Assembly: GCA_014729775.1 (NCBI GenBank)
Contig: WJJJ01000007.1
Coordinates: forward strand, 30,302-94,301
Direction: 5' to 3'
DNA from: Candidatus Omnitrophota bacterium
Lineage (GTDB): Bacteria > Omnitrophota > Gorgyraeia > Duberdicusellales > 4484-171
DNA length: 64,000 nucleotides
The translations under genes and the position numbers were made by a program. Numbering within the stretch: position 1 is the first letter of the stretch; the number at the start of each line of letters is the position of its first letter. The notes below the pieces were generated by a model. That model saw only the letters and a list, made by a program, of their open reading frames with translations, was not told where the DNA came from and did no database searches. Below are positions 1,180 through 52,958 of this stretch, in pieces.

Positions 1180-3033
1180 ATGAGTATACGGGTGAGAACA
1201 AAAAATCAGGAACCGCGAGGGGTTCGGGGGGTCAGGAAATACTGGTATTTCCTGAAGATGATGCAGGTTTCCCCGTGGTATTTTCTGATACAGATCGTCT
1301 CTTCTTTGTGCGTGGCAGGGTTTGACGGATTGAGTTTGGGGTTGCTCGCCCCGTTACTCAAGGGAATTATTGAGAAAGATTTTTCGTTCCTGGGCAATAT
1401 CACTGGGGTTCCCTGGCTGATGCGCGTGACCGGGATTCATATTCAGGACGTGCCCAGCCGGTTCCTTTTCCTGGGACTTGTGGGGGTTATTTTTGTTTCC
1501 GCGTTGCTCAAGAACGTGGTGTTTTATTTGTCTCAGGTATATATGGTGAAGCAGCGGGAAGGGTCCGCCTTTTATCTGAAGAATTTCGTGTTCCAGCGGT
1601 ATTTGACCTTCGGGAAATTATACCTGGATAAAATCAGCCAGGGGTATATCCAATCGGATCTCCTTTTCGCGGATCGGGTGGTCCGTCTCCTGGATGCGTT
1701 AGGGAAATTGCTGATCGCCGGGTTTACGCTGGTCGTCTATTTTTCGATCATGGTCTTTGTCGAATGGCGGCTGGCGCTGTTTGCGGTGGTAGTGTTGCCG
1801 GCACTCCATTTTTCGTTGCGGTGGTTAATTAAGAAGATCAGGCGAACGGCGCAACTTCAATCCAGAGTCGCGCTGAAGATGGGACGGCAAGTGTTCGATA
1901 TCCTTTCCGGGATCACGGTAGTGCACGCGTACAACAAGGAAGAGCCGATGTTCCGGAGATTCCGACAGATCAACGATGATATCAAACGGCATAATATCAG
2001 TCAGGATAAAAAGTTGCGAATGATCCAGCCCTTTCAGGAAGTGCTGACGATGATCGCGATCCTCTTTTTCGTTTCAGCGGTGGCGTTTATTTTTGTGACG
2101 GGCCGGGCAGGGCAGGTGTCGGAATATTTTCTGTTTCTCATTTTGGTCCGGCGGTGCGCCCCGGTGTTGATTCAGCTCAACCGGGTGAAATCAGATGTGG
2201 CGCAGCTTGACGGTCCGATGAATCGTTTGCTGAAGGTTGCGGAGGAAAAAGATAAACATGTCGTATCTTCCGGAGAAGAAGAGTTCAGCGGGATCAATTC
2301 CCACATTGAGATCCGAAATCTGAATTTTCAATACCGTCAGCATCTGCCGGTGGTCCGGGGAGTGAGCTTTACGATCCCCAAAGGGCAGATGACCGCGATC
2401 GTGGGGCCGACTGGTTCCGGGAAAACGACGTTGATCAATTTGATTATGCGGTTTTATGAGTGTCCGCCGGGGACGATTTTCCTTGACGGGAAAGATATTC
2501 GAGAGTATTCGATAGAGTCGTTGCGACGAAGTATTTCATTGGTCTCACAGGAGGTTACGTTATTTAACGATACTTTGAAAAACAATGTGCTCTTTGGGAG
2601 CCGACGGGATCAACGGCCCGGAAACGAGGAAGTACTCAGCGTATTTAAAAAAGCCCGGTTGGATGAGTTCGTCGCGAAGCTGCCGCAGGGGATACACACC
2701 GAGATCGGGGACAGGGGGGTGCGTCTCTCCGGCGGCGAGAAACAGCGGGTATCGATTGCGCGGGCGTTGCTGCGCCAGCCGGACATTATGATCTTGGATG
2801 AGGCGACCAGTTCTCTGGATACGACGACTGAACGGTTGGTTCAGGAAGCGATCGAGGAAGCGGTGAAAGGGCGTACCGCGATTGTGATCGCCCACCGGTT
2901 ATCCACCGTGAAAAACGCGGATAAGATAGTGGTCATTGAGGAAGGACGAAAGATAGAAGAAGGGCATTTGTCGGAGTTGATCGAAAGACGGGGAGCGTTT
3001 TATCATTACTGGCAGGCCCAGCGGTTTGAATAA
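1180..3033 (+). CDS. ABC transporter permease/ATP-binding fusion protein (MsbA/lipid-exporter-like)
   Basis: N-terminal 6-TM exporter domain followed by an NBD. Walker A is GPTGSGKTT, the ABC signature is LSGGEKQR and Walker B is IMILDEAT. An alternative ATG start lies at 1255/1258. Confidence 0.9.
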   Translation: MSIRVRTKNQEPRGVRGVRKYWYFLKMMQVSPWYFLIQIVSSLCVAGFDGLSLGLLAPLLKGIIEKDFSFLGNITGVPWLMRVTGIHIQDVPSRFLFLGLVGVIFVSALLKNVVFYLSQVYMVKQREGSAFYLKNFVFQRYLTFGKLYLDKISQGYIQSDLLFADRVVRLLDALGKLLIAGFTLVVYFSIMVFVEWRLALFAVVVLPALHFSLRWLIKKIRRTAQLQSRVALKMGRQVFDILSGITVVHAYNKEEPMFRRFRQINDDIKRHNISQDKKLRMIQPFQEVLTMIAILFFVSAVAFIFVTGRAGQVSEYFLFLILVRRCAPVLIQLNRVKSDVAQLDGPMNRLLKVAEEKDKHVVSSGEEEFSGINSHIEIRNLNFQYRQHLPVVRGVSFTIPKGQMTAIVGPTGSGKTTLINLIMRFYECPPGTIFLDGKDIREYSIESLRRSISLVSQEVTLFNDTLKNNVLFGSRRDQRPGNEEVLSVFKKARLDEFVAKLPQGIHTEIGDRGVRLSGGEKQRVSIARALLRQPDIMILDEATSSLDTTTERLVQEAIEEAVKGRTAIVIAHRLSTVKNADKIVVIEEGRKIEEGHLSELIERRGAFYHYWQAQRFE

Positions 3034-3052
3034 ACGGAAAGGAGAAACAGAG

Positions 3053-4771
3053 ATGGAAACGCAGCAGGGAACCAATATTATTGCGCCGTACGGAGAGACG
3101 CTCGTTGATCTGGTGGCTGCCGGCGGGGAGCGGGATGAATTGCTCGCCCGGTCGCGGGAAATGCCTTCATTGCAAGTGTCATTCCGGTCGCTTTGTGATC
3201 TGGAATTATTAGCTACTGGAGCTTTTTCGCCGGTCGATCGATTTATGAGCAGTAAAGATTATCTTCGCGTAAAAGAAGAAATGCGTCTGGCCGACGGCAC
3301 GTTCTTTCCCATCCCGGTCACGCTTCCCGCCGAAGATGTCAGCAGTTTCAAAACGGGCCGTCCGGTATGTATCCGCGGACCTCACAACGATGTCTTGGCC
3401 GTTTTGGAAGTAGAAGAAATCTATAAGTGGGACCGTGAGGACGAAGCCAGGAAGGTGTTCGGCACGACCGATTCCTACCATCCCCTCGTTGCCGAAATGG
3501 CAAGCTGGGGGAAGTACTATCTTTCGGGACCGATGAAAGTAGTGAACTTGCCGTGTCACTATGATTTTGCCGGGTTGCGCCGTACTCCCGCGCAGGTGAG
3601 AGCGTTTCTTTCGGAAATGGATGTGGCAAATGTCGTCGCATTTCAAACGAGAAATCCTCTGCACCGGGCGCACGAAGAACTTACCAAACGCGCCGCAGAG
3701 AAAATTAACGGGGCGCTCCTGCTTCATCCGGTCGTCGGGGCAACGCGTCCCGGAGATATCGATCACTTTATCCGAGTGCAGACGTACAAAGCGCTGGTGG
3801 AGAAGTATTACGACCCGCGGAAAACAGTGCTCAGCCTGCTGCCGCTGGCCATGCGGATGGCCGGTCCCCGGGAAGCGGTGTGGCACGCGATTATCCGCCG
3901 GAACTACGGAGCAAATCATTTTATCGTCGGCCGGGGGCATGCAGGCCCGGGAAAAGACTCTCATGGCCGCCCTTTTTACGGGCCTTACGACGCACAGGAG
4001 TTGATGCAGAAGGCAGAGCCCGAAATAGCGGTAAAGATGGTTGCCTTTCAGGAAATGGTGTATCTTCCGGACGAAGAACGTTTTGAAGAGCGGGCAAAAC
4101 TGGATCCTTCGGTTCGGATTCAGACCTTATCCGGCACGCAGGTAAGGAATGAATACCTGGCAAAAGGAAAATCTCTGCCGGAATGGTTTACCCGGCCGGA
4201 AGTTGCCCGGATTCTGGCGCACGCCTATCCTCCCTGTGAAGAAAAAGGGTTTTGTTTGTGGTTTACGGGCTGTCCGAGTGCGGGCAAGTCTACCATTGCT
4301 CAGATCGTGCAGGTACTGTTGAAAGAAAAAGGCAAGGAAGTGAGCATGCTTGACGGCGACGTGGTACGGACGCATCTTTCCAAGGGGCTCGGCTTTTCCC
4401 GCGAGGACCGGGATACCAATATCCTGAGGATTGGATTTGTGGCGTCGGAAATCGTCCGGCATCGCGGTACCGTGATCTGTGCCGCGGTCAGTCCGTACGA
4501 AGAAACCAGGAATCAGGTGCGGAGCATGGTCGGCGACGACCGGTTCGTGCTGGTGTTTGTCGATACTCCCCTCGAAGTCTGTGAACAGCGGGATATCAAA
4601 GGATTGTATGCCCAGGCCCGGTCGGGAAAGATTAAGGGGTTTACCGGAATCGATGATCCCTATGAACGTCCCGAAGCGCCGGATTTGCGGTTTACTACGA
4701 CCGAACAGAGTCCCGAGGAATGTGCGCGCGAAATTGTGCGGTATCTTGTCCAAAACGGATTTGTACGGTAA
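3053..4771 (+). CDS. sat: Bifunctional sulfate adenylyltransferase (ATP sulfurylase) / adenylyl-sulfate kinase (PAPS synthesis)
   Basis: The N-terminal ATP-sulfurylase motifs are QTRNPLHRAHE and GRGHAGPG. The C-terminal APS-kinase domain has the P-loop GCPSAGKST. The RBS is aaaggag 9 nt upstream of ATG 3053; the ORF tracker began at an upstream TTG (3026). Confidence 0.9.
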   Translation: METQQGTNIIAPYGETLVDLVAAGGERDELLARSREMPSLQVSFRSLCDLELLATGAFSPVDRFMSSKDYLRVKEEMRLADGTFFPIPVTLPAEDVSSFKTGRPVCIRGPHNDVLAVLEVEEIYKWDREDEARKVFGTTDSYHPLVAEMASWGKYYLSGPMKVVNLPCHYDFAGLRRTPAQVRAFLSEMDVANVVAFQTRNPLHRAHEELTKRAAEKINGALLLHPVVGATRPGDIDHFIRVQTYKALVEKYYDPRKTVLSLLPLAMRMAGPREAVWHAIIRRNYGANHFIVGRGHAGPGKDSHGRPFYGPYDAQELMQKAEPEIAVKMVAFQEMVYLPDEERFEERAKLDPSVRIQTLSGTQVRNEYLAKGKSLPEWFTRPEVARILAHAYPPCEEKGFCLWFTGCPSAGKSTIAQIVQVLLKEKGKEVSMLDGDVVRTHLSKGLGFSREDRDTNILRIGFVASEIVRHRGTVICAAVSPYEETRNQVRSMVGDDRFVLVFVDTPLEVCEQRDIKGLYAQARSGKIKGFTGIDDPYERPEAPDLRFTTTEQSPEECAREIVRYLVQNGFVR

Positions 4772-4811
4772 GAACAGAATGGCCAGGAGTTCGTGAAACC
4801 GGGAGCGGGAT

Positions 4812-7647
<2,836 letters not shown>

Positions 7648-7677
7648 GCGAACGAGGCACCGAAGAGGACAGCGGTA

Positions 7678-9444
7678 ATGAGCGGTACAAAGATGTTGAC
7701 CGATGAGATTCCGCGGTATCCCGATACGCTTCCCGGAAGCGTGTGGGGGCTTACCACGTACTATAATCCGGCTCAATACCGGAACAAACTAGCGAATTAT
7801 CGAATATTTAGAGAACGGGTTAAACGGCAGGGATTATCTCTGATCACGGTGGAAATCGCGTTCGGCCGGCGGCCGTTCGAGTTAGAGAACAGTGACGCCG
7901 AAGTCCTGATTCAGCGGCGGACACGCGGAGTGTTGTGGCAAAAAGAACGAGCGTTGAACATCGCCCTGCAGGCTCTGCCGGATGAGTGCGATAAAATTAT
8001 CTGGCTAGACGCGGATGTGCTGTTTTATGATGACCGGTGGATCGTGCGGACGTGTCGCGCGTTGCAGGAATACGTCGTTGTCCAGCCGTTTTCCTTTTTC
8101 TTCCGGCTGCCGAAAGGGTTCGAGGATTTGGAGGAATATACGCGGAGATATCCGGATGCCTGCCGCCGGATTACCGCCGGATATGGGATCGGGTACGGGA
8201 TCGCGCATTTAGGACGGGAATTTTTACGGGAAGTTTCGGTGCGGGAAGCCGGAACGGTAGGTTTTGCCTGGGCGGCGCGGCGGAGCGTATTTTCGTCCGT
8301 TGGGTTTTATGACGCTTCTCCGGTCGGAGTTGCGGATGCCGTTATGGCCTATGGATTTTACGGTGCCCAGTGCCGGCCATACCAACGCTATTGGACGGAG
8401 TCAATGAGGAGAGACCAAGCCCTTTGGACGGAGGAGATTTATCGCCGGGTGCGGGGCAGTGTGTTTTGGGTCGATGGGCGGCTGGGACATCTTTGGCACG
8501 GGGATGTAGCTTCACGGATGTACGTACGCCGGCAATCGATTGAGAAGAAATGCCGGTTCAACCCGCGTACGGATATCAAAAAAGATGCGCAAGACTGCTG
8601 GATATGGGCGACGCGTAAAAAGAAACGGTTGCGGTTCTGGGTTCGTTGGTATTTCTGGATGAGGAACGAAGAATGCAACGCGGCGGTACGGTGTCTGCGC
8701 GGGGTTACGCAGATGGGTACGTATCTGGCGAGAGTTCTGTGGGCGGCGTTTCCCCGGAGGATAAAAACGAGGTATTGGCAGGCAAAGGAACGTGTACTTT
8801 TGCGCAGAGGGAAGTTCCCCGTGCAGACCGCCGGACTGGTGTCCGGACGGTATCGGTGTCTCTATGTGGGGGTTCCGACCAGCTCCGGTTCATCGTGGAC
8901 ACAGCGTCTAGCCGGAGATCTGGGGATGAAGTTTGAACTTTTTCCGGGCTGTTCGCGGTTTTGGGCCGTGACGGATATACGTGCGCGTGAATTCCACCGG
9001 TATTTCAAATTTTGTTTCGTCCGGAATCCGTGGGAACGGGCAGCTGCCGGGTATGTGGAAAATATTCGACCATTGCCGGGGGGGCCGTACGGCCGCGGCG
9101 GTGGCGGCCGGGCATTTCCGTTTTTCCGGCCGGGGATGAGCTTCGAGGAGTTCATCAGGGTCATCCACCGTATTCCTGATTATGCCGCTGAACGATGGTT
9201 CCGTTCAAATTACGCCTGTATTTGCGATCCGCAGGGAAGGAAGGTAGTCGATTTCGTGGGCCGGTATGAACACTGGGAACGGGATTGGGCAACGGTGTAT
9301 GCGCGGCTGGGGTTGGTGAATAGGTCTGCTCCCGGTAAGGACGTCCGGTGTCCGGAGTACCGGCACTATTATAATGAAACGACCAAAGCGTTAGTGGAAC
9401 AGCGCTATCGCCGGGATATCGAGTTGTTTGGGTATGAGTTTTGA
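7678..9444 (+). CDS. Two-domain protein: N-terminal GT-A-like putative glycosyltransferase fused to a C-terminal carbohydrate sulfotransferase (Sulfotransfer_2-like) domain
   Basis: N-terminal half: WLDADVLF (DxD-like) and GHLWHGD. Middle: a Trp/Arg-rich linker. C-terminal half: a 5'-PSB-like YVGVPTSSGSSW, a 3'-PB motif FVRNPWERAAAGY, and the C-terminal Y..D..LFGYEF typical of CHST-type sulfotransferases. Confidence 0.7.
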   Translation: MSGTKMLTDEIPRYPDTLPGSVWGLTTYYNPAQYRNKLANYRIFRERVKRQGLSLITVEIAFGRRPFELENSDAEVLIQRRTRGVLWQKERALNIALQALPDECDKIIWLDADVLFYDDRWIVRTCRALQEYVVVQPFSFFFRLPKGFEDLEEYTRRYPDACRRITAGYGIGYGIAHLGREFLREVSVREAGTVGFAWAARRSVFSSVGFYDASPVGVADAVMAYGFYGAQCRPYQRYWTESMRRDQALWTEEIYRRVRGSVFWVDGRLGHLWHGDVASRMYVRRQSIEKKCRFNPRTDIKKDAQDCWIWATRKKKRLRFWVRWYFWMRNEECNAAVRCLRGVTQMGTYLARVLWAAFPRRIKTRYWQAKERVLLRRGKFPVQTAGLVSGRYRCLYVGVPTSSGSSWTQRLAGDLGMKFELFPGCSRFWAVTDIRAREFHRYFKFCFVRNPWERAAAGYVENIRPLPGGPYGRGGGGRAFPFFRPGMSFEEFIRVIHRIPDYAAERWFRSNYACICDPQGRKVVDFVGRYEHWERDWATVYARLGLVNRSAPGKDVRCPEYRHYYNETTKALVEQRYRRDIELFGYEF

Positions 9445-9476
9445 CCCGCGGCAGGCGTGAGTTTCCGGGGAAACGA

Positions 9477-10364
9477 ATGAAGAAGATGAAAGTATCGGTA
9501 GTGATCCGCAACCGTAATGAGGCGAGGTATCTCGAGAAAATCTTATATGCACTTTCTTTGCAGCGTGTGCCCCCTGATGAAATCATCGTGGTTGATAATG
9601 CCTCCGAAGACAACAGTGCCGAAGTGGCCGCGCGCGCGCAGGCGAAGCTCGTTTCGATCGACACAAAAACGTTTACCTATGGCAGAGCGTTGAATAGGGG
9701 GATTCGGGAAGCGAGCGGCGAAATTTGTGTCGTGCTGAGCGCGCACACGCTGCCGGTGGGCAGGAATTTCATCGAAGAATGCCTAGTTCCGTTTGAAGAT
9801 GAACGCATTGCAGGGGTTCGCTGTGTTCACGGCGCCAAGCAGCGTGATCTGGAAGAATGGATTAGCCCGCAAGTGCTGCGTTCTCCCGTTGATCCTGAAA
9901 AAGTAATTGCGTACGGACCTGGATGCGGATACGCGATTCGCCGAAGCGTATGGCAGGAGATTCCGTTTGAGGAAGATCTGGAAATGATCGAGGACAAGGC
10001 CTGGGCTTGGGAAGTGCTGCGTAACGGGTATCATATCTATTCTGCGTGTCCCGCGGTGTACACTCATATTCGGCCGCGCCGAACCCTGGAAAAAATATGG
10101 CGAACGAATCAGGAAGGGCGGGCGGTATACCGGAGATTCGCCCGGCGGTTCCCGGTGCGATCCCCGATGCAAGCGATCGGGGGTATCGTTGCGGCCGTCT
10201 GCTGGCGGGCTCCCCGGGCGGCGGTGTCGGTACTCGTCACAACGATAGGGACACACATTTTTTCCTTGATGTTGCCGATTATAGCCAGGAAAAAAGCATC
10301 ACAGGGGTCGCGTCCGTTTTTCGAAGTGTCACGGAGCTGGAAGGGGAGCAAGAAGAATGAGTGA
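9477..10364 (+). CDS. Family 2 glycosyltransferase
   Basis: ATG at 9477 (the tracker began at TTG 9441). KVSVVIRNRNEARYLEKILYALSLQRVPPDEIIVVDNASEDNS is a canonical GT2 N-terminus. Confidence 0.8.
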   Translation: MKKMKVSVVIRNRNEARYLEKILYALSLQRVPPDEIIVVDNASEDNSAEVAARAQAKLVSIDTKTFTYGRALNRGIREASGEICVVLSAHTLPVGRNFIEECLVPFEDERIAGVRCVHGAKQRDLEEWISPQVLRSPVDPEKVIAYGPGCGYAIRRSVWQEIPFEEDLEMIEDKAWAWEVLRNGYHIYSACPAVYTHIRPRRTLEKIWRTNQEGRAVYRRFARRFPVRSPMQAIGGIVAAVCWRAPRAAVSVLVTTIGTHIFSLMLPIIARKKASQGSRPFFEVSRSWKGSKKNE

Positions 10365-11085
10365 CACGAAGTACCGGTGTGTCGCGATTATCCCGGCCAG
10401 AGGAGGATCGAAAGGGATCCCGCAGAAGAACCTTGTAAAATTACATCGCCGTCCGCTACTGGCCTACACGATCGAAGCCGCTCGACAGAGCGGTTTGTTC
10501 GAGAAGGTACTCGTGTCGACCGAGAATGAAAAAATCAGGCAAACGGCGCATCGCTACGGTGCGCAATCCATCTGTCGCCCGGCGAACCTTTCCGGCGACC
10601 GCGCCGCTACCGAGCCGGTGGTTCTCCATGCGCTGAACCGGCTGCGCAAAACCGAAAGATACCGGCCCGATGTCGTATTCCTTTTACAGGCGACGTCGCC
10701 GTTGCGGGACGAGGACGATATTCGCGCGGCGTATCGGCAGTTTTTGCGGCAGAAGGTCGATTCGCTCCTTTCCGTGGAAAAAAACACCGATTTCCTGTGG
10801 AAAGAGTCCCGCAGGGGACTGGCTCCGATCAATTATTCGTATTCTCGACGGCCTCGCCGACAGGATATGCCGGTGCAATTCAAGGAAAACGGGGCAATTT
10901 ACATCACGAAATACGAGATATGGATGCGGCACGGAAATCGGTTAGGCGGAAGGATCGGGTATTCGCTGATGGATCCGATGAACTCGATCGAGATCGATGT
11001 TCCGTTTGATGTCATTGTTGCCGCGGCAGCGGTGCGCCGCCGGGGAAAAATACGCAAGAAGAAAGGGGGGAGTCATGACAGATAA
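10357..11085 (+). CDS. neuA: Acylneuraminate (nonulosonate) cytidylyltransferase, CMP-sugar synthetase
   Basis: CVAIIPARGGSKGIPQKNLVKLHRRPLLAYTIEAARQS matches the CMP-NeuAc/CMP-Kdn synthetase family N-terminus. It overlaps the upstream GT2 by 8 nt. Confidence 0.85.
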   Translation: MSDTKYRCVAIIPARGGSKGIPQKNLVKLHRRPLLAYTIEAARQSGLFEKVLVSTENEKIRQTAHRYGAQSICRPANLSGDRAATEPVVLHALNRLRKTERYRPDVVFLLQATSPLRDEDDIRAAYRQFLRQKVDSLLSVEKNTDFLWKESRRGLAPINYSYSRRPRRQDMPVQFKENGAIYITKYEIWMRHGNRLGGRIGYSLMDPMNSIEIDVPFDVIVAAAAVRRRGKIRKKKGGSHDR

Positions 11086-11947
11086 AGTACAGATCGCAGA
11101 CCGATTGGTGGGGAACGGCGAATCTTGTTTTGTAGTAGCCGAGATCGGCATCAATCACAACGGAGATCTGGATGTCGCCCGGAAGCTTATCTCCGCGGCG
11201 AATCTGGCGGGATGTGATGCGGTGAAATTTCAGAAAAGAACTGTGGAAACGGTATATACCCAGGAAGAACTCGCCAAGCCGAGGGAAAATCCCTTTGGGC
11301 CGACCAACGGAGATTTGAAACGAGGGTTGGAGTTTGACCGGGAGGAGTATGCACAGATCGCCGAATATTGCAAGACAAACAATCTTGTATGGTATGCGTC
11401 TTGCTGGGACGAAGGGTCGGTTGATTTTATGGAACAATTTAATCCGCCGTGCTACAAAATAGCTTCTCCGTTGTTAACCGACGATAAATTGTTGCGGTAT
11501 CATCGGCGGTACAAACGGCCGGTGATTCTTTCTACCGGGATGAGCACAATGGATCAGATCGATCACGCTGTCGAGGTGCTGGGAACGGAAAGGCTGATTT
11601 TGCTGCATTGTACCAGCACGTATCCGGCGCAGGTAGGGGAGCTCAATCTTCGCATGATTCCGGTATTGAAACAACGGTACCGGGTGCCGGTGGGCTATTC
11701 CGGGCATGAGGTTGGACTTGCGACCAGTATCGCCGCCGTTGCGTTGGGTGCATGCATGGTAGAGAGGCATATCACGCTGGACCGGGCGATGTGGGGAAGC
11801 GATCAGGCGGCGTCGGTCGAGCCGCACGGCTTCAGCCGACTGGTGCGCGACGCGCATGTAGTTGAGCAGGCTATGGGAGACGGGCAGAAGAGGGTATACG
11901 AGAGCGAAGTCCCCATCATTAAGAAGCTGCGGCGCGTGGGGAAGTAG
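11075..11947 (+). CDS. neuB: N-acetylneuraminate synthase family protein (NeuB-like nonulosonate / 9-phosphate synthase), lacks C-terminal SAF domain
   Basis: The NeuB TIM-barrel signature CFVVAEIGINHNGDLDVARKLI...CDAVKFQK is present. The RBS is ggggggag before ATG 11075. At 290 aa it has no antifreeze-like SAF domain. Confidence 0.85.
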   Translation: MTDKVQIADRLVGNGESCFVVAEIGINHNGDLDVARKLISAANLAGCDAVKFQKRTVETVYTQEELAKPRENPFGPTNGDLKRGLEFDREEYAQIAEYCKTNNLVWYASCWDEGSVDFMEQFNPPCYKIASPLLTDDKLLRYHRRYKRPVILSTGMSTMDQIDHAVEVLGTERLILLHCTSTYPAQVGELNLRMIPVLKQRYRVPVGYSGHEVGLATSIAAVALGACMVERHITLDRAMWGSDQAASVEPHGFSRLVRDAHVVEQAMGDGQKRVYESEVPIIKKLRRVGK

Positions 11948-11967
11948 TGCAAGCGAAGCGAGGCGGG

Positions 11968-12471
11968 ATGATGGAGCAGGAAAAAAAGAAAATTCGGTTC
12001 TCCGAGGTCAAACTGTTGGTCCTGGATTTCGACGGGGTGCTTACCGATAATAATGTCTATGTATCCGAGGACGGAAAAGAATCGGTGTGTTGTTCCCGGA
12101 GCGACGGTCTGGGAATAGAAATGGTGCAGAGCCGCGGGATACCCGTGGTGGTTTTATCCAAGGAAAAGAACAAGGTCGTAAAGGCCCGGTGCCGGAAGTT
12201 ACGCGTCCGGGTCACACAGGGGATCGACGAAAAACTCAGTGAACTAAAGCGAATTGCCGCGAACGCGAATGTTTCTCCCCGGCAAGTTTGTTATTTGGGT
12301 AACGACGTTAATGACCTGGAATGCGTAGAGTTTGCGGGGGCTGGCTGTGCGGTAAATGACGCCCATCCCGCGTTGCGCAATGCGGCCGATTATGTGACCA
12401 GGAACACCGGCGGGCACGGGGCTGTCAGAGAGATTTGTGAGTGTATCCTTGAAAGAGCAGATGAGCGGTAA
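11968..12471 (+). CDS. HAD-superfamily subfamily IIIA phosphatase (KdsC / Kdn-9-phosphate phosphatase family)
   Basis: VKLLVLDFDGVLTDNNVY...LGNDVNDLECVEFAGAGCAVNDA is the YrbI/KdsC family signature. The RBS gaggcggg precedes ATG 11968; the tracker began at GTG 11947. Confidence 0.8.
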   Translation: MMEQEKKKIRFSEVKLLVLDFDGVLTDNNVYVSEDGKESVCCSRSDGLGIEMVQSRGIPVVVLSKEKNKVVKARCRKLRVRVTQGIDEKLSELKRIAANANVSPRQVCYLGNDVNDLECVEFAGAGCAVNDAHPALRNAADYVTRNTGGHGAVREICECILERADER

Positions 12472-13906
12472 TTCTTTCGACATCCCGAATATCATTCTTA
12501 TTATTCCCCGAGGGGAGGCGGTACGAAATTTCCTGTACTCCGATACCCTTGCGGTACTGAGCGCGCATGCCCGGGTTACGCTGCTCTCGATTATCGACGA
12601 TGCGCGGTTCCTTGCCCGGTTCCGTCCGGCCGCGGAAAAGATCGTGCCGTTGGTGTCTTTCCATGAGCACCGTGCCCTTGCCTATCTTCGGGGAGTCATC
12701 CAGGAAGCGCATTTTCGCTGGATGTGGAGTAAGGTTGCGCAAAACCACTGGGAAACAAAGGATGCGAGGGCTGTACGTCCGGGCGAACGGCTTAAGTGGA
12801 CTGCGCTTAAAGCGGCTGCCCGGCTGGCGGCCAATTCTCCGTCGCTCACCGCCCTTACCAGATTGGAAAATTTCCTTACCTGGGCGATGCGACCCGATGA
12901 TGCATATCGCCGGGTGTTCGAGGCGGTGAAGCCGGATATCGTGTTTAATACCTCGCAAATCCATGGTCCGGCCGGAGATCTTCCGGTGAAGATCGCTCAT
13001 CGCTGCGGGATCCCTACGGCGTGTTTTATCTTTTCCTGGGATAATCCGACGTCGCGCAGCCGTATTACCGCTCCTTATGATTACTTCTTCGTGTGGAACC
13101 GGCACATGTGCGGGCAGATTCTTTCTTTGTATCCCCAGGTGCACCGTTCACAGGTGTTCGTTACCGGAACTCCCCAGTTTGATTTTCATTTTAAGCCGGA
13201 ATTCTGGCTGGAACGCAGAGACTTGTGCCGCCGGATCGGGGCCGATCCCGACCGGCCGTTCATCCTCTATACTACGGGAATGGATCGGGATTTCCCCGAA
13301 GAACATCGTACCGTCGAATATATCGCCCGGATCTTGCATACGATCGATGTATCCCCTCGGCCGCAGTTGATTGTGCGGACATACGTGAAAGGAACGAGTC
13401 CGCAGATGAATGCTCTGGCCGGACGGCGTCTGCCCGGCGTAATTTTCCCTCCTCAGCTGTGGGATGAAAAGTGGCTGTATACGCCGCGGTATGAGGATTT
13501 AGCGGTATACACCAGTCTTTTGCGGGAGTGCAGTGCGGGCATAAATGCGGCATCAACGGTTTCCCTGGAATTGATGATGCATGATAAGCCGGTGATCAAT
13601 TTAGCATTTAATCCGCCGGGGAGTACTCTGCCGCATCATTTACGGTGGAGGCGGCACATCGAGTACGACCATTACCGGCCTGTAGCGGAAAGCGGGGCGG
13701 TTGATGTTGCACGGTTTCCGGAAGATCTGCCTGGAATGATCCGGCGGAGTATATTACATCCTGAAGCGGGGCGTGAGCAGCGGGAGCAGTTTGTCCGCCG
13801 GATGTTTGCCGATACGCTGGACGGCAAATCCGGCATACGCGTGGCGCAAAAGTTGATCTCCGTCGCCGGATCCGCACATGGGTCCAGCCGGCATGACGAT
13901 ACGTAG
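12461..13906 (+). CDS. Hypothetical soluble protein, possible GT-B-like (capsule-synthesis/CDP-glycerol-transferase-like) glycosyltransferase
   Basis: 482 aa with no TM segments and an alternating alpha/beta pattern (PDIVFNTSQIHGPAGD...FILYTTGMDRDF...). Its position directly after the CMP-nonulosonate genes suggests a transferase role. I recognise no confident motif. Confidence 0.4.
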   Translation: MSGNSFDIPNIILIIPRGEAVRNFLYSDTLAVLSAHARVTLLSIIDDARFLARFRPAAEKIVPLVSFHEHRALAYLRGVIQEAHFRWMWSKVAQNHWETKDARAVRPGERLKWTALKAAARLAANSPSLTALTRLENFLTWAMRPDDAYRRVFEAVKPDIVFNTSQIHGPAGDLPVKIAHRCGIPTACFIFSWDNPTSRSRITAPYDYFFVWNRHMCGQILSLYPQVHRSQVFVTGTPQFDFHFKPEFWLERRDLCRRIGADPDRPFILYTTGMDRDFPEEHRTVEYIARILHTIDVSPRPQLIVRTYVKGTSPQMNALAGRRLPGVIFPPQLWDEKWLYTPRYEDLAVYTSLLRECSAGINAASTVSLELMMHDKPVINLAFNPPGSTLPHHLRWRRHIEYDHYRPVAESGAVDVARFPEDLPGMIRRSILHPEAGREQREQFVRRMFADTLDGKSGIRVAQKLISVAGSAHGSSRHDDT

Positions 13907-22031: not shown

Positions 22032-22088
22032 AAGGTGTTGCGTTGTTTCATCTCTCCCCGTAGAATAATATCGGGGGGAGAAAGGGTT

Positions 22089-23219
22089 ATGAAAGAAATG
22101 TCAATTGTCATCGTCGGTGCCGGTCCGATCGGGTGCTATGTGGGGCAGCTTTTGACCCGGCAGGGATACCGTGTCCGAATTATTGAGGAGCACAATGAGA
22201 TCGGGAAACCGGTGCATTGTGCGGGATTAATCGGGAAAAAGGTGCTGGATGAGATGCGAATCCCTTTCCCCAGGGAGAGCGTACTCAACCGTATTGACGG
22301 GGGGATTGTGCATCTCAATGGGGATTGTTTCCGTCTCCGGCGAGAAGAAGTTGCCTATGTGATCGACCGGGAAAAATTCGATAAAGCTATGGGGGCGGGA
22401 TTGAATGTGACCTATGGAACCCGGTGTGTCGGGATTGAGGAGAACGGAAGAGGGTATATTCTTGAAACTGACAGAGGAGAAATAAAAGCGGACGCGATCA
22501 TCGGTGCTGACGGCGCGCATTCTGCGGTCCGGGAATACGTGCATCAGAAAACCCCGGTCGAATATCTGAAAGGGGTACAGTTCCGGATGGAGCAGGCTCC
22601 TTCTGATATCAATATGGTGGAGATCTTTCTCAAAAAGCCTTATTTCTTCTGGAGCATCCCTGAAAATGAGAAAATCGTCCGGGTCGGGGTTCTTTCCCGG
22701 AATCCGTACTATGATCTTCTCGATTTTATCAAGGAAAGAGGTTTTCAGGGACGGGTGATCGAGAAATTCGCGGGACTTGTGCCCTTTTCGCATTTTTCCA
22801 CGTTTTCCAAAGGAAACGTATTTTTGGTGGGGGACAGCGCCGCACAAATAAAACCGTTGTCTTACGGCGGTGTCTATCTGGGGATGCGCGCTGCGGAACT
22901 TCTCGCGGATTGCCTGTGCAGTGAAAGGCATCAAGAATATTCTTCCCTGTGGAAGCGCCGTTTCGGCAGGGAACTCGCGATTACACTGAAGGCCCGCCGT
23001 TATTTTCATACGCTGAGCGAAGAAGATTTAGAACGAATATTTTTCTTCGTGAAAGATAATACTTCTCTTATAGAGGAAAAAGCCGATTTTGAAAATCACG
23101 CGGTGATGGTTTGGGAGTTCTTAAAACGGCCGAACGTATCAAAAGAAATATTGAGCATATTGCTGAAACTCGTGAAAAACAATTTTTTTCAGAATGAAGT
23201 CAATTACGCTACAAAGTAG
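22089..23219 (+). CDS. Geranylgeranyl reductase family FAD-dependent oxidoreductase
   Basis: MSIVIVGAGPIGCYVGQ...IIEEHNEIGKPVHCAGLIG is the GGR-type dinucleotide-binding fold with the PxCGG-like motif. ATG at 22089 (the tracker began upstream). Confidence 0.8.
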   Translation: MKEMSIVIVGAGPIGCYVGQLLTRQGYRVRIIEEHNEIGKPVHCAGLIGKKVLDEMRIPFPRESVLNRIDGGIVHLNGDCFRLRREEVAYVIDREKFDKAMGAGLNVTYGTRCVGIEENGRGYILETDRGEIKADAIIGADGAHSAVREYVHQKTPVEYLKGVQFRMEQAPSDINMVEIFLKKPYFFWSIPENEKIVRVGVLSRNPYYDLLDFIKERGFQGRVIEKFAGLVPFSHFSTFSKGNVFLVGDSAAQIKPLSYGGVYLGMRAAELLADCLCSERHQEYSSLWKRRFGRELAITLKARRYFHTLSEEDLERIFFFVKDNTSLIEEKADFENHAVMVWEFLKRPNVSKEILSILLKLVKNNFFQNEVNYATK

Positions 23220-24498
23220 AATTATTATTCTCTTTGTGATTTTTACCATTTTCACGATCGGCATTTTCGTCGTGATTCAGCTGTCGCATGAGTTGAATTC
23301 GGTTAACCAGGAGATTGAGTACCGGGCCCGCGCGAATTCAAATGAAGTAGAGGAGGAATTCCGGGAGATTCTTCTCCGGTTCCCGGACCGCGCGGAGGCG
23401 ATCGAAGTGATGGGTGAAAAACTCCAGGCGCTGAAAACCTCCGGGTTTCTCGAGCGTGCCTATGTGCTTGATTCTTCGGGTGAAATTGTATTCTCTACCG
23501 AGGGCTGGTTTGGAGGACAAAAGGGGAGTTTTACCGATTTTAATATACTGCAAAAATTTTTCGCGGAGGATTCGAGACGGAGAGAGGCTGTTACCGATAA
23601 AAAGAGCCGGTTACTCTCGGTGTATATCCCTCTTGACCAGGAAGATGAGTTGCGTTATTTGGTGCGGTTGTTTTTCCCTCTGGGCGATATTTGGACGGCG
23701 ATGCGGCAGGTCTATCAGCCGGCGTTTGCGGTCGGGCTGTTGTTTATCGTATTGAATGTATTGTTCGGGATATCTCTTTCCCGGGCGATTATCGGTCCGA
23801 TTAAGGTGGTAAGCGAGGCGGCAAAAAAAATCGCCGCGGGAAATCTTGATTTACGCGTACGAATGTCCACGAACGACGAGCTGGAGGAGTTGGCCAATAC
23901 GTTTAATGTGATGACAGTTGAATTAGACAAGATGAAACGACAAGCTGAGGATGCCAATCCTCTGACAAAACTTCCAGGGAACGTATTGATTCGCGAAGAG
24001 ATCGAGATGCGAATTCAAAACAAGGAAAAATTCGCGGTCGTATATTGCGACTTGGATAATTTCAAAGCGTTCAATGACAAATACGGAATCGGTAAAGGAG
24101 ATGAGGCAATCAAGCTTACCGGGGAGATTTTCAAACGGGCCGTAGAGCACAAAGGGGAATCAGATGATTTTATCGGACATGAAGGCGGGGACGATTTTTT
24201 ATTGGTATGCCGGCTTTCCCGGGTGGAAGAGGTGGCCAATTACATAATTGAAGAATTCGATGTGCGCATACGGGATTTATACGACAAAGAAGACAAAGCG
24301 CAGGGCTATATTATCGCAACGGGACGGGACGGGGTAAAGCGGCAGTTTTCCATTATGACCATTTCTCTGGCGGGAATTACGAACGGCCGCCGGGAGCTGC
24401 ACAGCTACGGTGAAATCACCAATATTGCGGCCGAAGTGAAAAAGAAAGCAAAAAACCAGGAGCGCAGCTGTTTGGTGTTTGACGAACGGACCGGGTAG
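23194..24498 (+). CDS. Membrane-bound HAMP-GGDEF domain protein (diguanylate-cyclase family; signature motif is GGDDF)
   Basis: Two TM segments flank a ~150-aa periplasmic region, then HAMP (IGPIKVVSEAAKKIAAGNLDLRV). The GGDEF domain has LTKLPGN, YCDLDNFKAFND, and GGDDF at 24184-24198 in place of GG(D/E)EF. Confidence 0.8.
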   Translation: MKSITLQSRIIILFVIFTIFTIGIFVVIQLSHELNSVNQEIEYRARANSNEVEEEFREILLRFPDRAEAIEVMGEKLQALKTSGFLERAYVLDSSGEIVFSTEGWFGGQKGSFTDFNILQKFFAEDSRRREAVTDKKSRLLSVYIPLDQEDELRYLVRLFFPLGDIWTAMRQVYQPAFAVGLLFIVLNVLFGISLSRAIIGPIKVVSEAAKKIAAGNLDLRVRMSTNDELEELANTFNVMTVELDKMKRQAEDANPLTKLPGNVLIREEIEMRIQNKEKFAVVYCDLDNFKAFNDKYGIGKGDEAIKLTGEIFKRAVEHKGESDDFIGHEGGDDFLLVCRLSRVEEVANYIIEEFDVRIRDLYDKEDKAQGYIIATGRDGVKRQFSIMTISLAGITNGRRELHSYGEITNIAAEVKKKAKNQERSCLVFDERTG

Positions 24499-24508
24499 TG
24501 TATTAGTA

Positions 24509-24835
24509 TTAGGAGAGGTTATCTAAGAGACTTTCCGTAAGATCTTTATACGGGTTCAAATACGGATGCGGCTCGTCTAATGCGAAATCCGGGATGTTTT
24601 CCTTTTCCTGGATACGAGGCGCGGGGTTGATAATGTTGGAAATAATTTGTTTCCATTTAGGGATGTCCGTCGGGGGCTGGGGATCGTTGCGGTCTGCATG
24701 GTAATCGGGCGAAGCGCTGTTGTCTTCGGGCCACTCCACCTGCGATGGTTCGGGTTGGGCGAGCGCCCAGAAACCACCGGTTCCCAATAACAGAACTACC
24801 GCACATATGAAAATCATATCTTTGTGTATGCTCAT
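24509..24835 (-). CDS. Small secreted hypothetical protein (108 aa, Pro/Asp-rich)
   Basis: This is the only convincing minus-strand gene. The Met at 24835 gives MSIHKDMIFICAVVLLLGTGGFWALA|QP, a typical Sec signal peptide. It lies in the 425-nt gap between convergent and divergent + strand genes. Confidence 0.4.
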   Translation of the reverse strand: MSIHKDMIFICAVVLLLGTGGFWALAQPEPSQVEWPEDNSASPDYHADRNDPQPPTDIPKWKQIISNIINPAPRIQEKENIPDFALDEPHPYLNPYKDLTESLLDNLS

Positions 24836-24922
24836 CTCAATTAAAGGATACCATACCCTGCCCCCCGATGTCAATAAAATCGCCGATGGCGAAAAACCAT
24901 TGAAAATAAAGGAGAATACGTT

Positions 24923-26761
24923 ATGATGCGCCGAGTTTTCCAGCGCTCCGTGCTTACTCTGATCGTGGTTGTGGTGACAATGGGGACGTTTCTTTTTATT
25001 TATAATACCTATATGTTGGATCATTCTCTCTTTAATCTGAAGGTTTCGCTCAAACATCTGGCTACCGTGGAAAATCCCAGGGAAATGGAGGAAATCCGGC
25101 AAATCCTGGACGTTGTATTGGTCCAGGAAATTGCCCGGGATTCGTCCGACTTTTTAGCGGCGGCAAAACTGGAATTTTCCGGTCAGATTGCGGGGCGGAT
25201 GAAGCAATATCAGCAGATTCAGGATATCCGGTTTCTCTTGGGGGATATCGTGGAACAACGGGAGGAGCGACGCAATCCTTTTTTTGCTCTGCTGGACAGC
25301 ATTTTGATGAAACTCTTCCCCCATGTGCGGCAGGACCAGCCGCAGAAGATACGCGCAATGATCAGCGAAATGGAAAAGAAAATTCCCCTTTACGACGGAA
25401 TTAAGCTGCAGGCGCATTTAATCCGTCTGGCACAGATGAATATGCGTCTTCGGGAGTGGCCTGTCGCATTGGAGTTGTTGCAGCGGGCGGCTTCAGCCGG
25501 GCCGGAAAGTAAGGAGGGCCGTATCGCGAAGCTATATGTGGGAATCGTATATAAATTTACCGGAGAGTATGAGCGTGCCCGGAAAGTATTCAGCGAGCTT
25601 CGTTCGGTGTTAGAGAAAGATCTGAAAAAATACGCAATATATCAGGAAGCCCAAATCTTGTATGCAGAAGGGCGAAAGGGACAGGCCTTGCAGAAGTTAG
25701 AAGAGTTCTTTGATGATTCGCCCGGAGAAGAATTCCATCAATTCTCGCAGTTCCGGGCGGCATACGAGTATCTATACACCATACACGACCACCAGAAGGC
25801 GTATCAGTCGTTTCAAAAACTGCATGAATATGCACCCCAAAGCAAGTATGACGAATATGCGGTTACCTATCTCTATCCCCGGAATGCGGAGCCGTATGTA
25901 GAAGAAGGAGCAATTTTGTTGGATGAAGGGTATAATCTGGTGCGGTTGGCACATGAAAAAGAGGCACGCGAACGATATCAGGGTGCATTGAACCTGTTCC
26001 ACCAGGCGGTAAAAATTTGTCCGCCGGAAACCAATGATACCGTGGTGTCGATTATCGCCCGCAATTATCGGGAAACCGGATTCAAACTGGTCGAACAAGG
26101 ATATTTGTCTCAACAGGCGAACCAGAAAGCGGAAGCGACGTTGTTTTTTTCCGATGCGATCGAGAAATTTGATCTTGCAACGCAATTCTTCGACCGCGAA
26201 GCGTTAGCATACAGCGGGAAAGGACTGACGTTATTGTTTCTCGGGAAGCCGCAGGAAGCGCTGGATGCCGCGCGGGAAGCCGTCCGTCTCAATCCCGAGA
26301 ATGAAGAAACACTGGCTCATTTGGGGTATGTGTATTATCGGGTGGGAATGCTTGACGAAGCGATCGATGTGTATCGAAAATCGATGTTGGTATTACGAGA
26401 TTCTCCGCTATTGCATTATAATCTGGGGACAATGTTGGTTAAAAAAGGCAACCTTGTGGGAGCGATCGAAAATTTCAAACAGGCGATTGATGCTGATCCG
26501 AAATATTCGTACGCATATAATAACCTAGGATACATTTTGTGGGTAAAGGGCGCCTATCAGGAGGCGCAGACAAATTTGGAGCGAGCCGTGAGTTTGAGCC
26601 CCGATTATGTGGATGCCAGGTATAATCTCGGAGTCTTGTTTTTTACCATCGGAAAGTACGAACAGGCCCAGGAGCAGTTCCAAGTGATCAACCGTTTGCA
26701 TCCGGGGTTCAAAAAAAGCCAACAGTTTCTGAGAGCGATTGAAAAGAGAGCTGCACAATAA
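24923..26761 (+). CDS. TPR-repeat protein with N-terminal membrane anchor
   Basis: RBS aaggag 7 nt before ATG. An N-terminal TM (LTLIVVVVTMGTFLFIY) is followed by multiple TPR-like repeats (YNLGTMLVKKGNLVGAIENFKQAIDADPKYSYAYNNLGYI...). Confidence 0.8.
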   Translation: MMRRVFQRSVLTLIVVVVTMGTFLFIYNTYMLDHSLFNLKVSLKHLATVENPREMEEIRQILDVVLVQEIARDSSDFLAAAKLEFSGQIAGRMKQYQQIQDIRFLLGDIVEQREERRNPFFALLDSILMKLFPHVRQDQPQKIRAMISEMEKKIPLYDGIKLQAHLIRLAQMNMRLREWPVALELLQRAASAGPESKEGRIAKLYVGIVYKFTGEYERARKVFSELRSVLEKDLKKYAIYQEAQILYAEGRKGQALQKLEEFFDDSPGEEFHQFSQFRAAYEYLYTIHDHQKAYQSFQKLHEYAPQSKYDEYAVTYLYPRNAEPYVEEGAILLDEGYNLVRLAHEKEARERYQGALNLFHQAVKICPPETNDTVVSIIARNYRETGFKLVEQGYLSQQANQKAEATLFFSDAIEKFDLATQFFDREALAYSGKGLTLLFLGKPQEALDAAREAVRLNPENEETLAHLGYVYYRVGMLDEAIDVYRKSMLVLRDSPLLHYNLGTMLVKKGNLVGAIENFKQAIDADPKYSYAYNNLGYILWVKGAYQEAQTNLERAVSLSPDYVDARYNLGVLFFTIGKYEQAQEQFQVINRLHPGFKKSQQFLRAIEKRAAQ

Positions 26762-26762
26762 A

Positions 26763-26791
26763 TTGACAGCAGCATGAAAATATACTAAACT
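26763..26791 (+). promoter_or_regulatory. Putative sigma70-type promoter (TTGACA-17-TAAACT) giving a near-leaderless PilZ mRNA
   Basis: TTGACA at 26763-26768 and TAAACT at 26786-26791 with a 17-nt spacer. The predicted TSS is ~3-4 nt before ATG 26802. Confidence 0.45.
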
Positions 26792-26801
26792 TATCGTTGA
26801 G

Positions 26802-27377
26802 ATGCTGAAATCATTCAAGAAACATTTCTTCCGCAAGAAAGGCCGTGACCGGAGAAAATATGTCCGGTTGCGTGCGCATCATTTGCTGAAGTATAAAATT
26901 CTTTCTCCCCAAGAACATCTGACCTTTGTCCGCGATATCAGCGGCGGCGGACTCCTCTTTTTCTCGAGAGAGGATATTCCTGTGGGGAGTGTAGTGGAAC
27001 TTGCCGTTAATTTTCCCGCATCTCCCTTGCCGATTGAAGGGGTAGCCAAGGTGATCCGGACCCGGCATCTTAAAAAGATGGGCGGCTACGAGATCGCAGT
27101 CGAATTTCTCGAGCTGGACGAAGAAAACCGGGAACGGATTCAACGGCAAATAGCGTGTGTATATGAAAAAAAAGAACAAAGAAAGGGGGAGCGAATGGGC
27201 AGAGTAGCGAAAATATTCCTGGGACTCGCGATTGTCGGCGCGCTTTTCGGGACGGCAACGCGATTCTTTGATGTGAGTGTCCCGGTTGCCCCGCTCAGTT
27301 GGGTTATGTTGACCAATATGTTTTTGCTGTTCTCTATCGCGGTCACTTTGTTGGCAATTGCTCGGAAGATCAAATAG
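26802..27377 (+). CDS. PilZ-domain c-di-GMP receptor with C-terminal two-TM anchor
   Basis: Canonical PilZ motifs RKYVRLR (RxxxR) and DISGGG (DxSxGG), followed by two hydrophobic helices at the C-terminus. Confidence 0.8.
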   Translation: MLKSFKKHFFRKKGRDRRKYVRLRAHHLLKYKILSPQEHLTFVRDISGGGLLFFSREDIPVGSVVELAVNFPASPLPIEGVAKVIRTRHLKKMGGYEIAVEFLELDEENRERIQRQIACVYEKKEQRKGERMGRVAKIFLGLAIVGALFGTATRFFDVSVPVAPLSWVMLTNMFLLFSIAVTLLAIARKIK

Positions 27378-27418
27378 GTTCTTTTGAGGATATACGGGGC
27401 AGACGGAATTTTATTCGT

Positions 27419-30088: not shown

Positions 30089-30094
30089 GGAACG

Positions 30095-52929: not shown

Positions 52930-52958
52930 GTGAACTTTTACAACGAAAAGGAGGGAAT

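Follow-up and report, generated by a model that had tools for sequence, protein, structure and literature searches.

The window analysed here is a 64,000-nt stretch of the genome of a Candidatus Omnitrophota bacterium (assembly GCA_014729775.1, contig WJJJ01000007.1, positions 30,302 to 94,301, forward strand), and all coordinates are counted from its first nucleotide. At positions 10357-13906, within a large exopolysaccharide locus of the Wzx/Wzy type, four translationally coupled genes form an operon. To judge from its sequence, this cassette probably makes a cytidine monophosphate (CMP)-activated nonulosonic acid, most likely Kdn (3-deoxy-D-glycero-D-galacto-non-2-ulosonic acid), via a phosphorylated intermediate, and adds it to a glycan. 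The genes encode a NeuA-like cytidylyltransferase, a short NeuB-family synthase, a YrbI/KdsC-family phosphatase of the haloacid dehalogenase (HAD) superfamily, and a GT-B-fold protein (Table 1). In the proposed pathway the synthase, which lacks the SAF (antifreeze-like) domain, would condense phosphoenolpyruvate (PEP) with a manno-configured aldose phosphate of central metabolism, most likely mannose 6-phosphate (Man-6-P), to give Kdn-9-phosphate (Kdn-9-P); the phosphatase would strip the 9-phosphate; the NeuA homolog would convert Kdn and cytidine triphosphate to CMP-Kdn; and the GT-B protein would transfer Kdn onto the polymer. Streptomyces, Bacteroides and algae already provide examples of the phosphate route, and no new principle is involved.

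A preliminary description of this DNA had placed NeuA-like, NeuB-like and KdsC-type phosphatase genes at 10357-12471 and proposed a 9-phosphate, Kdn-like route that dispenses with NeuC. The three genes are confirmed as plus-strand open reading frames (ORFs) with Pfam or NCBIfam matches, and in Pfam scans of 50 ORFs spanning the whole window the domain scores of the cassette are far beyond chance. Among these 50 ORFs there was no match to Epimerase_2/NeuC, NanE or NanK, to a DegT-type aminotransferase, a pseudaminic/legionaminic acid (Pse/Leg) acetyltransferase or an SIS isomerase, or to KdsA, KdsB or KdsD, nor were lpt genes found in the window; the absence of NeuC and of Pse/Leg amination and acetylation genes noted earlier therefore stands. 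The module itself extends further than had been described, as the gene at 12461-13906 also belongs to it. The ATG of the NeuA-like gene (10357) overlaps the stop codon of an upstream glycosyltransferase family 2 (GT2) gene by 8 nt; NeuA and NeuB overlap, with the NeuB start at 11075 and the NeuA stop at 11085, as do the phosphatase gene and the fourth gene, whose ATG at 12461 precedes the phosphatase stop at 12471. Cassette neighbours overlap by 8-11 nt or abut, and for this reason the four genes are read as a single coupled unit.

The synthase matches the Pfam NeuB family (PF03102) with 267.7 bits (gathering threshold 22.1, E 1.2e-79) over residues 38-272 and profile positions 1-241 of 241, shows no match to SAF (PF08666), and ends 18 residues past the NeuB domain. 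Its longest ORF begins at 10997 (316 aa), and the ATG at 11075 is preceded by GGGGGGAG, a strong Shine-Dalgarno sequence; the length of 290 aa presumes this ATG and not the first in-frame start at 10997, and the 290-aa product and an NCBI protein of 290 aa, encoded in a metagenome-assembled genome (MAG) labelled 'Candidatus Omnitrophica bacterium', are 100% identical. The short, SAF-less form first reported for this protein is thus upheld. More than 8000 database proteins match the synthase, and hundreds of NeuB-only proteins of 288-292 aa, 72-78% identical to it, occur in Acidobacteriota, Limisphaerales, an anammox planctomycete and others. SAF-less NeuB homologs have been described as a large environmental group, Streptomyces included, that makes up about 30% of UniProt nonulosonate synthases and has no assigned function, and the SAF domain as the holder of the sole conserved C-terminal substrate-binding residue, Arg314 (PMC8208679).

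Both the N-acetylneuraminic acid (Neu5Ac)/legionaminate synthase equivalog TIGR03569 (NeuB_NnaB; 257.9 bits, cut-off 399.65) and the PseI equivalog TIGR03586 (221.3 bits, cut-off 340.25) are missed, and relatives of solved structure are distant (PseI 138 bits, SpsE 137, a 290-aa Leptospira protein 133, Neisseria meningitidis NeuB 110). The Streptomyces SCO4881-type NeuB shares 58% of residues with it (323 bits, 285 residues aligned), the Kdn-9-P synthetase of the alga Prymnesium parvum 37%, and synthases of the type of Bacteroides BT1714 33-40%. A neighbour-joining tree of synthases (277 columns, 200 bootstraps) sets the window family apart from all other sequences with 100% bootstrap support and unites it with the Streptomyces protein and a Methylomagnum plasmid protein with 99%. 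A separate clade (92%) contains N. meningitidis NeuB, two 'NeuB' proteins linked to NeuC or an aminotransferase, two PseI, SpsE and the Leptospira protein, to the exclusion of the window synthase; the P. parvum enzyme is intermediate (51%). An identity as PseI or LegI is rejected on the missed equivalog cut-offs together with exclusion from the 92% clade. A plasmid-labelled Escherichia coli record, considered as a source of the K1 neuB, was not used; it holds an unnamed 'NeuB family' gene found in 11 of 5426 genomes.

Two features of the alignment separate the phospho-sugar-associated synthases from the classical enzymes. The first is a K-R dipeptide right after the conserved K-x-Q (window K51-F-Q53-K54-R55), where classical enzymes have T, M or A followed by H, F or Y, and the second is a loop of the form [FWY]-G-x-T....[KR]..L-E (window F74-G75-P-T77-N-G-D-L-K82-R83-G-L85-E86-F87). 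This empirical signature is present in all aligned members of a phospho-sugar working group, defined as the Kdn-9-P synthetase of P. parvum together with the BT1714-type and Streptomyces SCO4881-type enzymes, and in 0/7 classical sequences, N. meningitidis NeuB, PseI and SpsE among them; it may serve to bind phosphate. A review states that a loop of human NANS favours the phosphorylated substrate (PMC8208679), which fits this signature. The window synthase keeps the metal-binding histidines of N. meningitidis NeuB as well as its two catalytic glutamates besides Glu134, and the whole SAF-less group has 'SGH' before the metal-binding histidine where other NeuB homologs have 'SDH'. We infer that the window protein is a Kdn-9-P synthase that would condense PEP most likely with Man-6-P.

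Translation of the phosphatase gene gives 174 aa from a GTG at 11947 and 167 aa from an ATG at 11968, the latter being the more likely start. The protein reaches the cut-off of the YrbI subfamily model TIGR01670 (120.3 bits, cut-off 106.95), and the catalytic D-x-D of its 'LDFDG' motif aligns with the catalytic aspartates of KdsC and of BT1713, the Kdn-9-P phosphatase of Bacteroides. Among solved structures it matches 3mmz, a Streptomyces avermitilis protein, best (E 3e-36), and the C-terminal domain of vertebrate CMAS (3ewi) matches at E 1e-21. Glu56, Arg64 and Lys67 reportedly set the specificity of BT1713. The window protein has Glu/Arg/Lys at these positions, as do 3mmz, the Streptomyces locus, the Methylomagnum protein and 83/83 BT1713-like sequences adjoining BT1714-type synthases, whereas three KdsC structures carry Arg/Arg/Thr or Arg/Arg/Ser; the Glu lies in 'SKEK' of the window protein, where E. 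coli KdsC ('TGRK') has Arg. In Limisphaerales, Acidobacteriota, 'Ca. Wunengus' (an anammox planctomycete), metagenomic relatives and Streptomyces, the phosphatase forms the C-terminal domain of NeuA. Streptomyces makes no lipopolysaccharide (LPS), so the ortholog there cannot serve the synthesis of 3-deoxy-D-manno-octulosonic acid (Kdo). From the signature and these fusions we infer a Kdn-9-P phosphatase.

The cytidylyltransferase is of the NeuA/CMAS type and not KdsB: it matches CTP_transf_3 (PF02348) with 90.9 bits (E 1.3e-25), its best solved relative is the N-domain of mouse CMP-Neu5Ac synthetase (1qwj, 116 bits), followed by N. meningitidis NeuA (1eyr, 90), and KdsB structures score at most 35. 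It is 35% identical to the characterised CMP-Kdn synthetase of P. parvum, and the PseF equivalog is missed (139.8 bits, cut-off 205.7). The 9-phosphate route put forward in the preliminary description is therefore supported by the tree, the signature residues and the NeuA-phosphatase fusions, with Kdn itself suggested by homology.

The fourth gene has no Pfam match even at E <= 10, and its homologs, annotated as 'hypothetical proteins', are found in many phyla at 53-64% identity. In several related loci a homolog comes right after the short NeuB (31% identity in loci L001 and L084, 58% in L094). The BFO_1060 glycosyltransferase family (NF046086) is the only one with significant sequence similarity to the protein, which is not a member of it (41.2 bits over about 130 residues, cut-off 200, E 1.1e-10); knock-outs identified the Pse/Leg transferases of Tannerella forsythia to which BFO_1060 is orthologous, and these carry a TagB/GT-B-type domain (PMC5420450). 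A confident AlphaFold model from 42 sequences (predicted local distance difference test 92.6, predicted template modelling score 0.91) has a GT-B fold with a four-helix insertion at model residues ~71-142. A family profile found no match against PDB sequences, and comparison with Streptomyces NeuE-like and polysialyltransferase-family proteins gave no similarity. The same operon position elsewhere is taken by a KpsC/KpsS-type protein, and in Streptomyces a polysialyltransferase-family gene lies nearby. There is a good likelihood that the protein is a nonulosonate transferase.

Of the systems compared, Streptomyces SCO4879-SCO4881 (NeuE-like, NeuA, NeuB), which is defined genetically and not biochemically, is the closest. 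A Streptomyces locus reached via 3mmz (L168) has a NeuA-phosphatase fusion followed by a 312-aa NeuB-only protein, with a NeuE-like ORF upstream and divergent GT2, polysialyltransferase-family and acyltransferase genes, and is syntenic with S. coelicolor SCO4876-SCO4881; the arrangement of SCO4878-SCO4881 is the same, and roles have been given to these genes (PMC3479208). The region is referred to, where PMC13011467 cites Ostash 2014, as the biosynthetic cluster of teichulosonic acid, a polymer of galactose and Kdn (PMC11481543). Shared with the window are a SAF-less NeuB of about 300 aa, the same type of NeuA, a Glu/Arg/Lys phosphatase, the lack of an adjoining NeuC and the setting in a surface-polymer locus. 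In Streptomyces, however, the phosphatase is fused to NeuA, whereas in the window the two are separate, NeuA being followed by NeuB and then by the phosphatase; the Streptomyces transferases are a GT38 polysialyltransferase-family protein and a NeuE-like one; and the host is Gram-positive and the product a wall polymer.

In Bacteroides thetaiotaomicron, BT1714 is the Kdn-9-P synthase and BT1713 the Kdn-9-P phosphatase (as referred to in PMC6200933). A genome scan with BT1713 gave 80 Bacteroidota loci, each with a NeuB homolog directly upstream; B. thetaiotaomicron is not among these loci and is represented by orthologs of 61-75% identity. The likeness to the Bacteroides arrangement seen in the preliminary description holds for the pairing of a NeuB homolog with an adjacent YrbI-family phosphatase, and extends to Glu/Arg/Lys, the K-R dipeptide with loop motif, and the lack of NeuC. 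It fails for the missing SAF domain: BT1714-type synthases are about 346 aa long and have SAF (PF08666, 36.5 bits), which rules out SAF loss as a trait of the Bacteroides pathway and makes it one shared with Streptomyces and Prymnesium. The P. parvum synthetase (312 aa), which uses Man-6-P and PEP but not mannose (PMC6200933), is likewise short and SAF-less, with the KFQKR motif, the loop and the SGH motif; unlike the window system it is eukaryotic and has no cognate phosphatase identified.

The vertebrate NANS/NANP/CMAS pathway also starts from a phosphorylated hexose, passes through a 9-phosphate intermediate and has a KdsC-like domain at the C-terminus of CMAS. NANS carries an SAF/antifreeze-like domain and prefers N-acetylmannosamine 6-phosphate (ManNAc-6-P), and NANP, the phosphatase of vertebrates, is a member of another HAD family; the KdsC-like protein of the window, unlike the vertebrate arrangement, is presumably an active phosphatase. 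Classical NeuC-NeuB-NeuA systems likewise use an aldol condensation with PEP by a NeuB-family enzyme and CMP activation of the NeuA type, but the window has a phosphatase, lacks NeuC and SAF, and has its synthase outside the classical clade. The Tannerella transferases (Tanf_01245, TFUB4_00887, BFO_1060) are, like the fourth protein, of TagB/GT-B type and encoded beside CMP-nonulosonate genes; the window protein differs in its extra four-helix insertion and in scoring below the family cut-off.

Related loci were compared for 27 members of the synthase family whose flanks span 4 kb or more on either side. A phosphatase is encoded no farther than 6 kb from NeuB in 22/27; NeuA is present in 18/27, and NeuC in 0/27. 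Only the four cassette genes are shared by the window and the related loci, and the rest of each glycan locus differs, so the cassette moves between polysaccharide loci.

Several points weigh against the enzyme assignments or against Kdn as the product. We know of no bacterial SAF-less NeuB that has been characterised biochemically, and the clade of the characterised BT1714-type enzymes, whose sequences group separately with 91-100% bootstrap, does not include the window synthase. The position of Glu134 of N. meningitidis NeuB, a proposed catalytic residue, is a Leu in the window synthase ('KIASPLLTDD'); neither the Streptomyces protein nor the active P. parvum enzyme has an acidic residue there. 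The phosphatase misses the equivalog of Bacteroides Kdn-9-P phosphatases (NF058599; 98.7 bits, cut-off 180) as well as the KdsC equivalog (NF007019; 140.1 bits, cut-off 208), and since both are missed the family scores do not settle the choice between the two activities. For Glu56, Arg64 and Lys67 the analysis covered the conservation pattern, and their role in specificity is presumed. In S. coelicolor the regulon includes a putative ManNAc-6-P 2-epimerase, SCO4873 (PMC3479208). Many relatives add AP_endonuc_2, GFO/IDH/MocA and short-chain dehydrogenase/reductase (SDR) genes, so the products of the family are not uniform. Lastly, in 11/27 loci the operon contains a GmhA-like gene of the SIS_2 (sedoheptulose-7-phosphate-isomerase) type, which may indicate that the synthase takes a heptose 7-phosphate and that the product has ten carbons.

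This last point opens the foremost alternative, in which the phosphate route runs with another aldose phosphate (D-glycero-D-manno-heptose 7-phosphate, or some other non-hexose or modified sugar) and yields a ten-carbon or otherwise non-Kdn ulosonic acid. The GmhA-like genes score just under the gmhA equivalog cut-offs (191.4 vs 209.45; 220.8 vs 276). In L094, the locus most syntenic with the window, one (9377-9988) separates the NeuA-phosphatase fusion from NeuB; there is an overlap of 4 nt, and no heptose kinase or nucleotidyltransferase lies nearby that would otherwise explain it. In L133 (7698-9005) a KdsC-like HAD domain is fused to a GmhA-like one, and in Bacteroidota Kdn loci the association is almost absent (1/80). 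Marker ions of C10 ulosonic acids have been reported in another bacterium, but these acids (SugarBase) are diacetamido sugars of Magnetospirillum, which the preprint does not link to the SAF-less NeuB family (bioRxiv 10.64898/2026.04.20.719630). The window itself has no SIS gene, its NeuA is of the nine-carbon CMAS/NeuA type, and a GmhA-like enzyme could equally supply Man-6-P from fructose 6-phosphate. All loci of the minimal type, those with the isomerase included, keep the Glu/Arg/Lys phosphatase signature; its second and third residues are different where the oxidoreductase set is present. Another aldose phosphate is thus unlikely for the window, and Kdn is favoured because the minimal loci keep Glu/Arg/Lys and the closest relative with a known product, that of Streptomyces (58% identity), makes Kdn. 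Somewhat less likely again is the bolder form of the idea, that the whole SAF-less family, window included, takes D-glycero-D-manno-heptose 7-phosphate from GmhA-like isomerases and makes a CMP-activated ten-carbon 3-deoxy-ulosonic acid, which a new GT-B family would install. To our knowledge there are no known biosynthetic genes for ten-carbon 3-deoxy-ulosonic acids.

An animal-like route to Neu5Ac, with ManNAc-6-P from a NanE/NanK-type enzyme encoded elsewhere in the genome converted through Neu5Ac-9-phosphate to CMP-Neu5Ac, would account for the fusion of NeuA to a KdsC-like domain in relatives, for vertebrate CMAS as best structural relative of NeuA, for a loop motif like that of human NANS, and for the S. 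coelicolor epimerase mentioned above. We regard it as improbable: all compared relatives that use N-acyl sugars have SAF and the window synthase does not, NanE, NanK and GNE were not found in the window, the phosphatase has Glu/Arg/Lys as in Kdn-9-P phosphatases, and the Streptomyces polymer contains Kdn and not Neu5Ac (PMC11481543).

Still less probable is a classical, unphosphorylated route in which the fourth gene would encode a very divergent hydrolysing NDP-sugar 2-epimerase, a cryptic NeuC, and the phosphatase would have another role. The fold of the fourth protein is similar, but the fold alone: there is no sequence match to UDP-GlcNAc 2-epimerase/NeuC (PF02350), the hhalign profile probability against a NeuC is 1.5%, no PDB match was found, and scores are barely above those of ordinary GT-B transferases (PimA 19.6, TarL 19.5). 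Among 120 listed homologs, 7 have weak Glyphos_transf matches (P0267, P0282, P0288, P0310, P0324, P0327 and one more) and 1 an Epimerase_2 match, the only significant match of the protein is to the Pse/Leg transferase family, and a free-sugar route leaves the conserved phosphatase and its NeuA fusion unexplained. Finally, the KdsC equivalog is the highest-scoring NCBIfam model of the phosphatase and several KdsC structures match it at E 1e-28 to 1e-30, yet a genuine Kdo-8-phosphate phosphatase for LPS, next to NeuB by chance, is highly improbable given the missed cut-off, Glu at the position of KdsC Arg78, Lys in place of Thr/Ser at the third marker, overlapping or abutting operon neighbours on both sides, and a window without kdsA, kdsB, kdsD or lpt genes; a housekeeping KdsC is rejected on the strength of the signature residues, the NeuA fusions in several phyla and the Streptomyces orthologs.

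Other gene combinations were seen among the loci collected. A second operon type (L133, 4368-7917; similar in L105, L106, L116 and L118) consists of a NeuB about 71% identical, an AP_endonuc_2 TIM-barrel protein, a GFO/IDH/MocA protein, NeuA, an SDR and the HAD-SIS fusion, has Glu/Ile/Arg as its phosphatase signature, and probably makes a modified or epimeric ulosonic acid. On Methylomagnum ishizawai plasmid pRS11DPr1 (L086; NZ_AP019784.1, 157407-176285) genes for a split transketolase, a class III aminotransferase and an SDR come before a 57%-identical short NeuB with an adjacent HAD-IIIA phosphatase, and no NeuA is annotated in the vicinity; an aminated ulosonic acid might be made here from a sugar phosphate built by transketolase. 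A Ginsengibacter sp. MAG (L065, 4391-6151) encodes a 586-aa protein with a cytidylyltransferase-like domain at its N-terminus and NeuB and SAF parts, adjoining a BT1713-like phosphatase; its fusion partner differs from that in the NeuA-phosphatase fusions of the SAF-less family.

As the mechanism is already known, the value of the cassette lies in annotation and in candidate enzymes. In the extracellular polymers of wastewater granular sludges, which are sulfated as well, Kdn ranked second in abundance among the nonulosonic acids measured, and annotation could not separate Kdn synthases from Neu5Ac synthases (PMC10483923). From the window and its more than 8000 homologs come two practical markers by which a cassette of the phosphate route, probably of Kdn type, can be recognised: a SAF-less NeuB of about 290 aa with the K-R dipeptide and loop motif, and a phosphatase of YrbI type that has Glu/Arg/Lys and in many cases is fused to NeuA. 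Such cassettes are widespread, occurring in uncultured Omnitrophica, Acidobacteriota, Verrucomicrobiota, Planctomycetota and Actinomycetota, and databases label them only as 'N-acetylneuraminate synthase'. The main use of the finding would be the re-annotation of a very large mislabelled enzyme family, along with the prediction of a Kdn-bearing, sulfated and fucosylated polymer in Omnitrophica.

Table 1. Features of the cassette and of the polysaccharide locus around it (coordinates in the window)
Feature	Position	Strand	Family match or remark
NeuA-like CMP-nonulosonate synthetase, 242 aa	10357-11085	+	PF02348
SAF-less NeuB-family synthase, 290 aa; predicted Kdn-9-P synthase	11075-11947	+	PF03102
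YrbI/KdsC-family HAD phosphatase; predicted Kdn-9-P phosphatase	11947-12471	+	TIGR01670
GT-B-fold protein, 481 aa; putative CMP-nonulosonate (Kdn) transferase	12461-13906	+	no Pfam family
Bifunctional ATP-sulfurylase/adenosine 5'-phosphosulfate (APS) kinase	3026-4771		
GDP-mannose 4,6-dehydratase (Gmd)	4812-5858	+	PF16363, E 5e-136
GDP-fucose-synthase-like (Fcl-like) epimerase/reductase	5855-6808	+	PF01370, E 1.2e-57
588-aa protein	7678-9444		Sulfotransfer_2 in last ~155 residues, E 3.4e-11; N-terminal ~430 aa without Pfam match
Export/regulation part: FAD oxidoreductase, tetratricopeptide repeat (TPR) protein, BBP2_2 beta-barrel porin, second Wzy_C protein, another TPR protein	22035-34202		
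HAMP-GGDEF protein	23194-24498		
PilZ protein	26802-27377		
Wza	28748-30088		
Wzc-like protein	30095-31933		

The surrounding locus holds, by Pfam, an ATP-binding cassette (ABC) exporter, several GT2 and GT4 transferases, a methyltransferase, two Wzy-like proteins and a Bac_transf initiating transferase. The genes of 3026-9444, which also include a GT2 gene, are together predicted to serve a sulfated, fucose-containing polysaccharide, and with synthesis of 3'-phosphoadenosine 5'-phosphosulfate, a sulfotransferase and GDP-fucose synthesis in one locus, a sulfated, fucosylated, Kdn-bearing polysaccharide is predicted for this Omnitrophica bacterium. Gmd and the Fcl-like enzyme imply a GDP-mannose and hence a mannose-phosphate pool, which lends indirect support to the availability of Man-6-P. 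The 588-aa protein with the sulfotransferase domain has no homolog in any of the related nonulosonate loci fetched. Farther downstream, the export and regulation part suggests a secretion system controlled by cyclic di-GMP, and the polysaccharide locus is followed by housekeeping genes.

All credible ORFs of the window lie on the plus strand, and GC skew is positive in 32/32 bins of 2 kb (0.03-0.22). Long antisense ORFs, such as that at 50719-53031 on the minus strand (770 aa, opposite the gene for V-ATPase subunit I), look like artefacts of composition. The stretch 37903-42651 encodes a 788-aa protein that combines TPR, DUF3857 and transglutaminase-core domains; the ORF after it (40630-42651, 673 aa) has no Pfam match.

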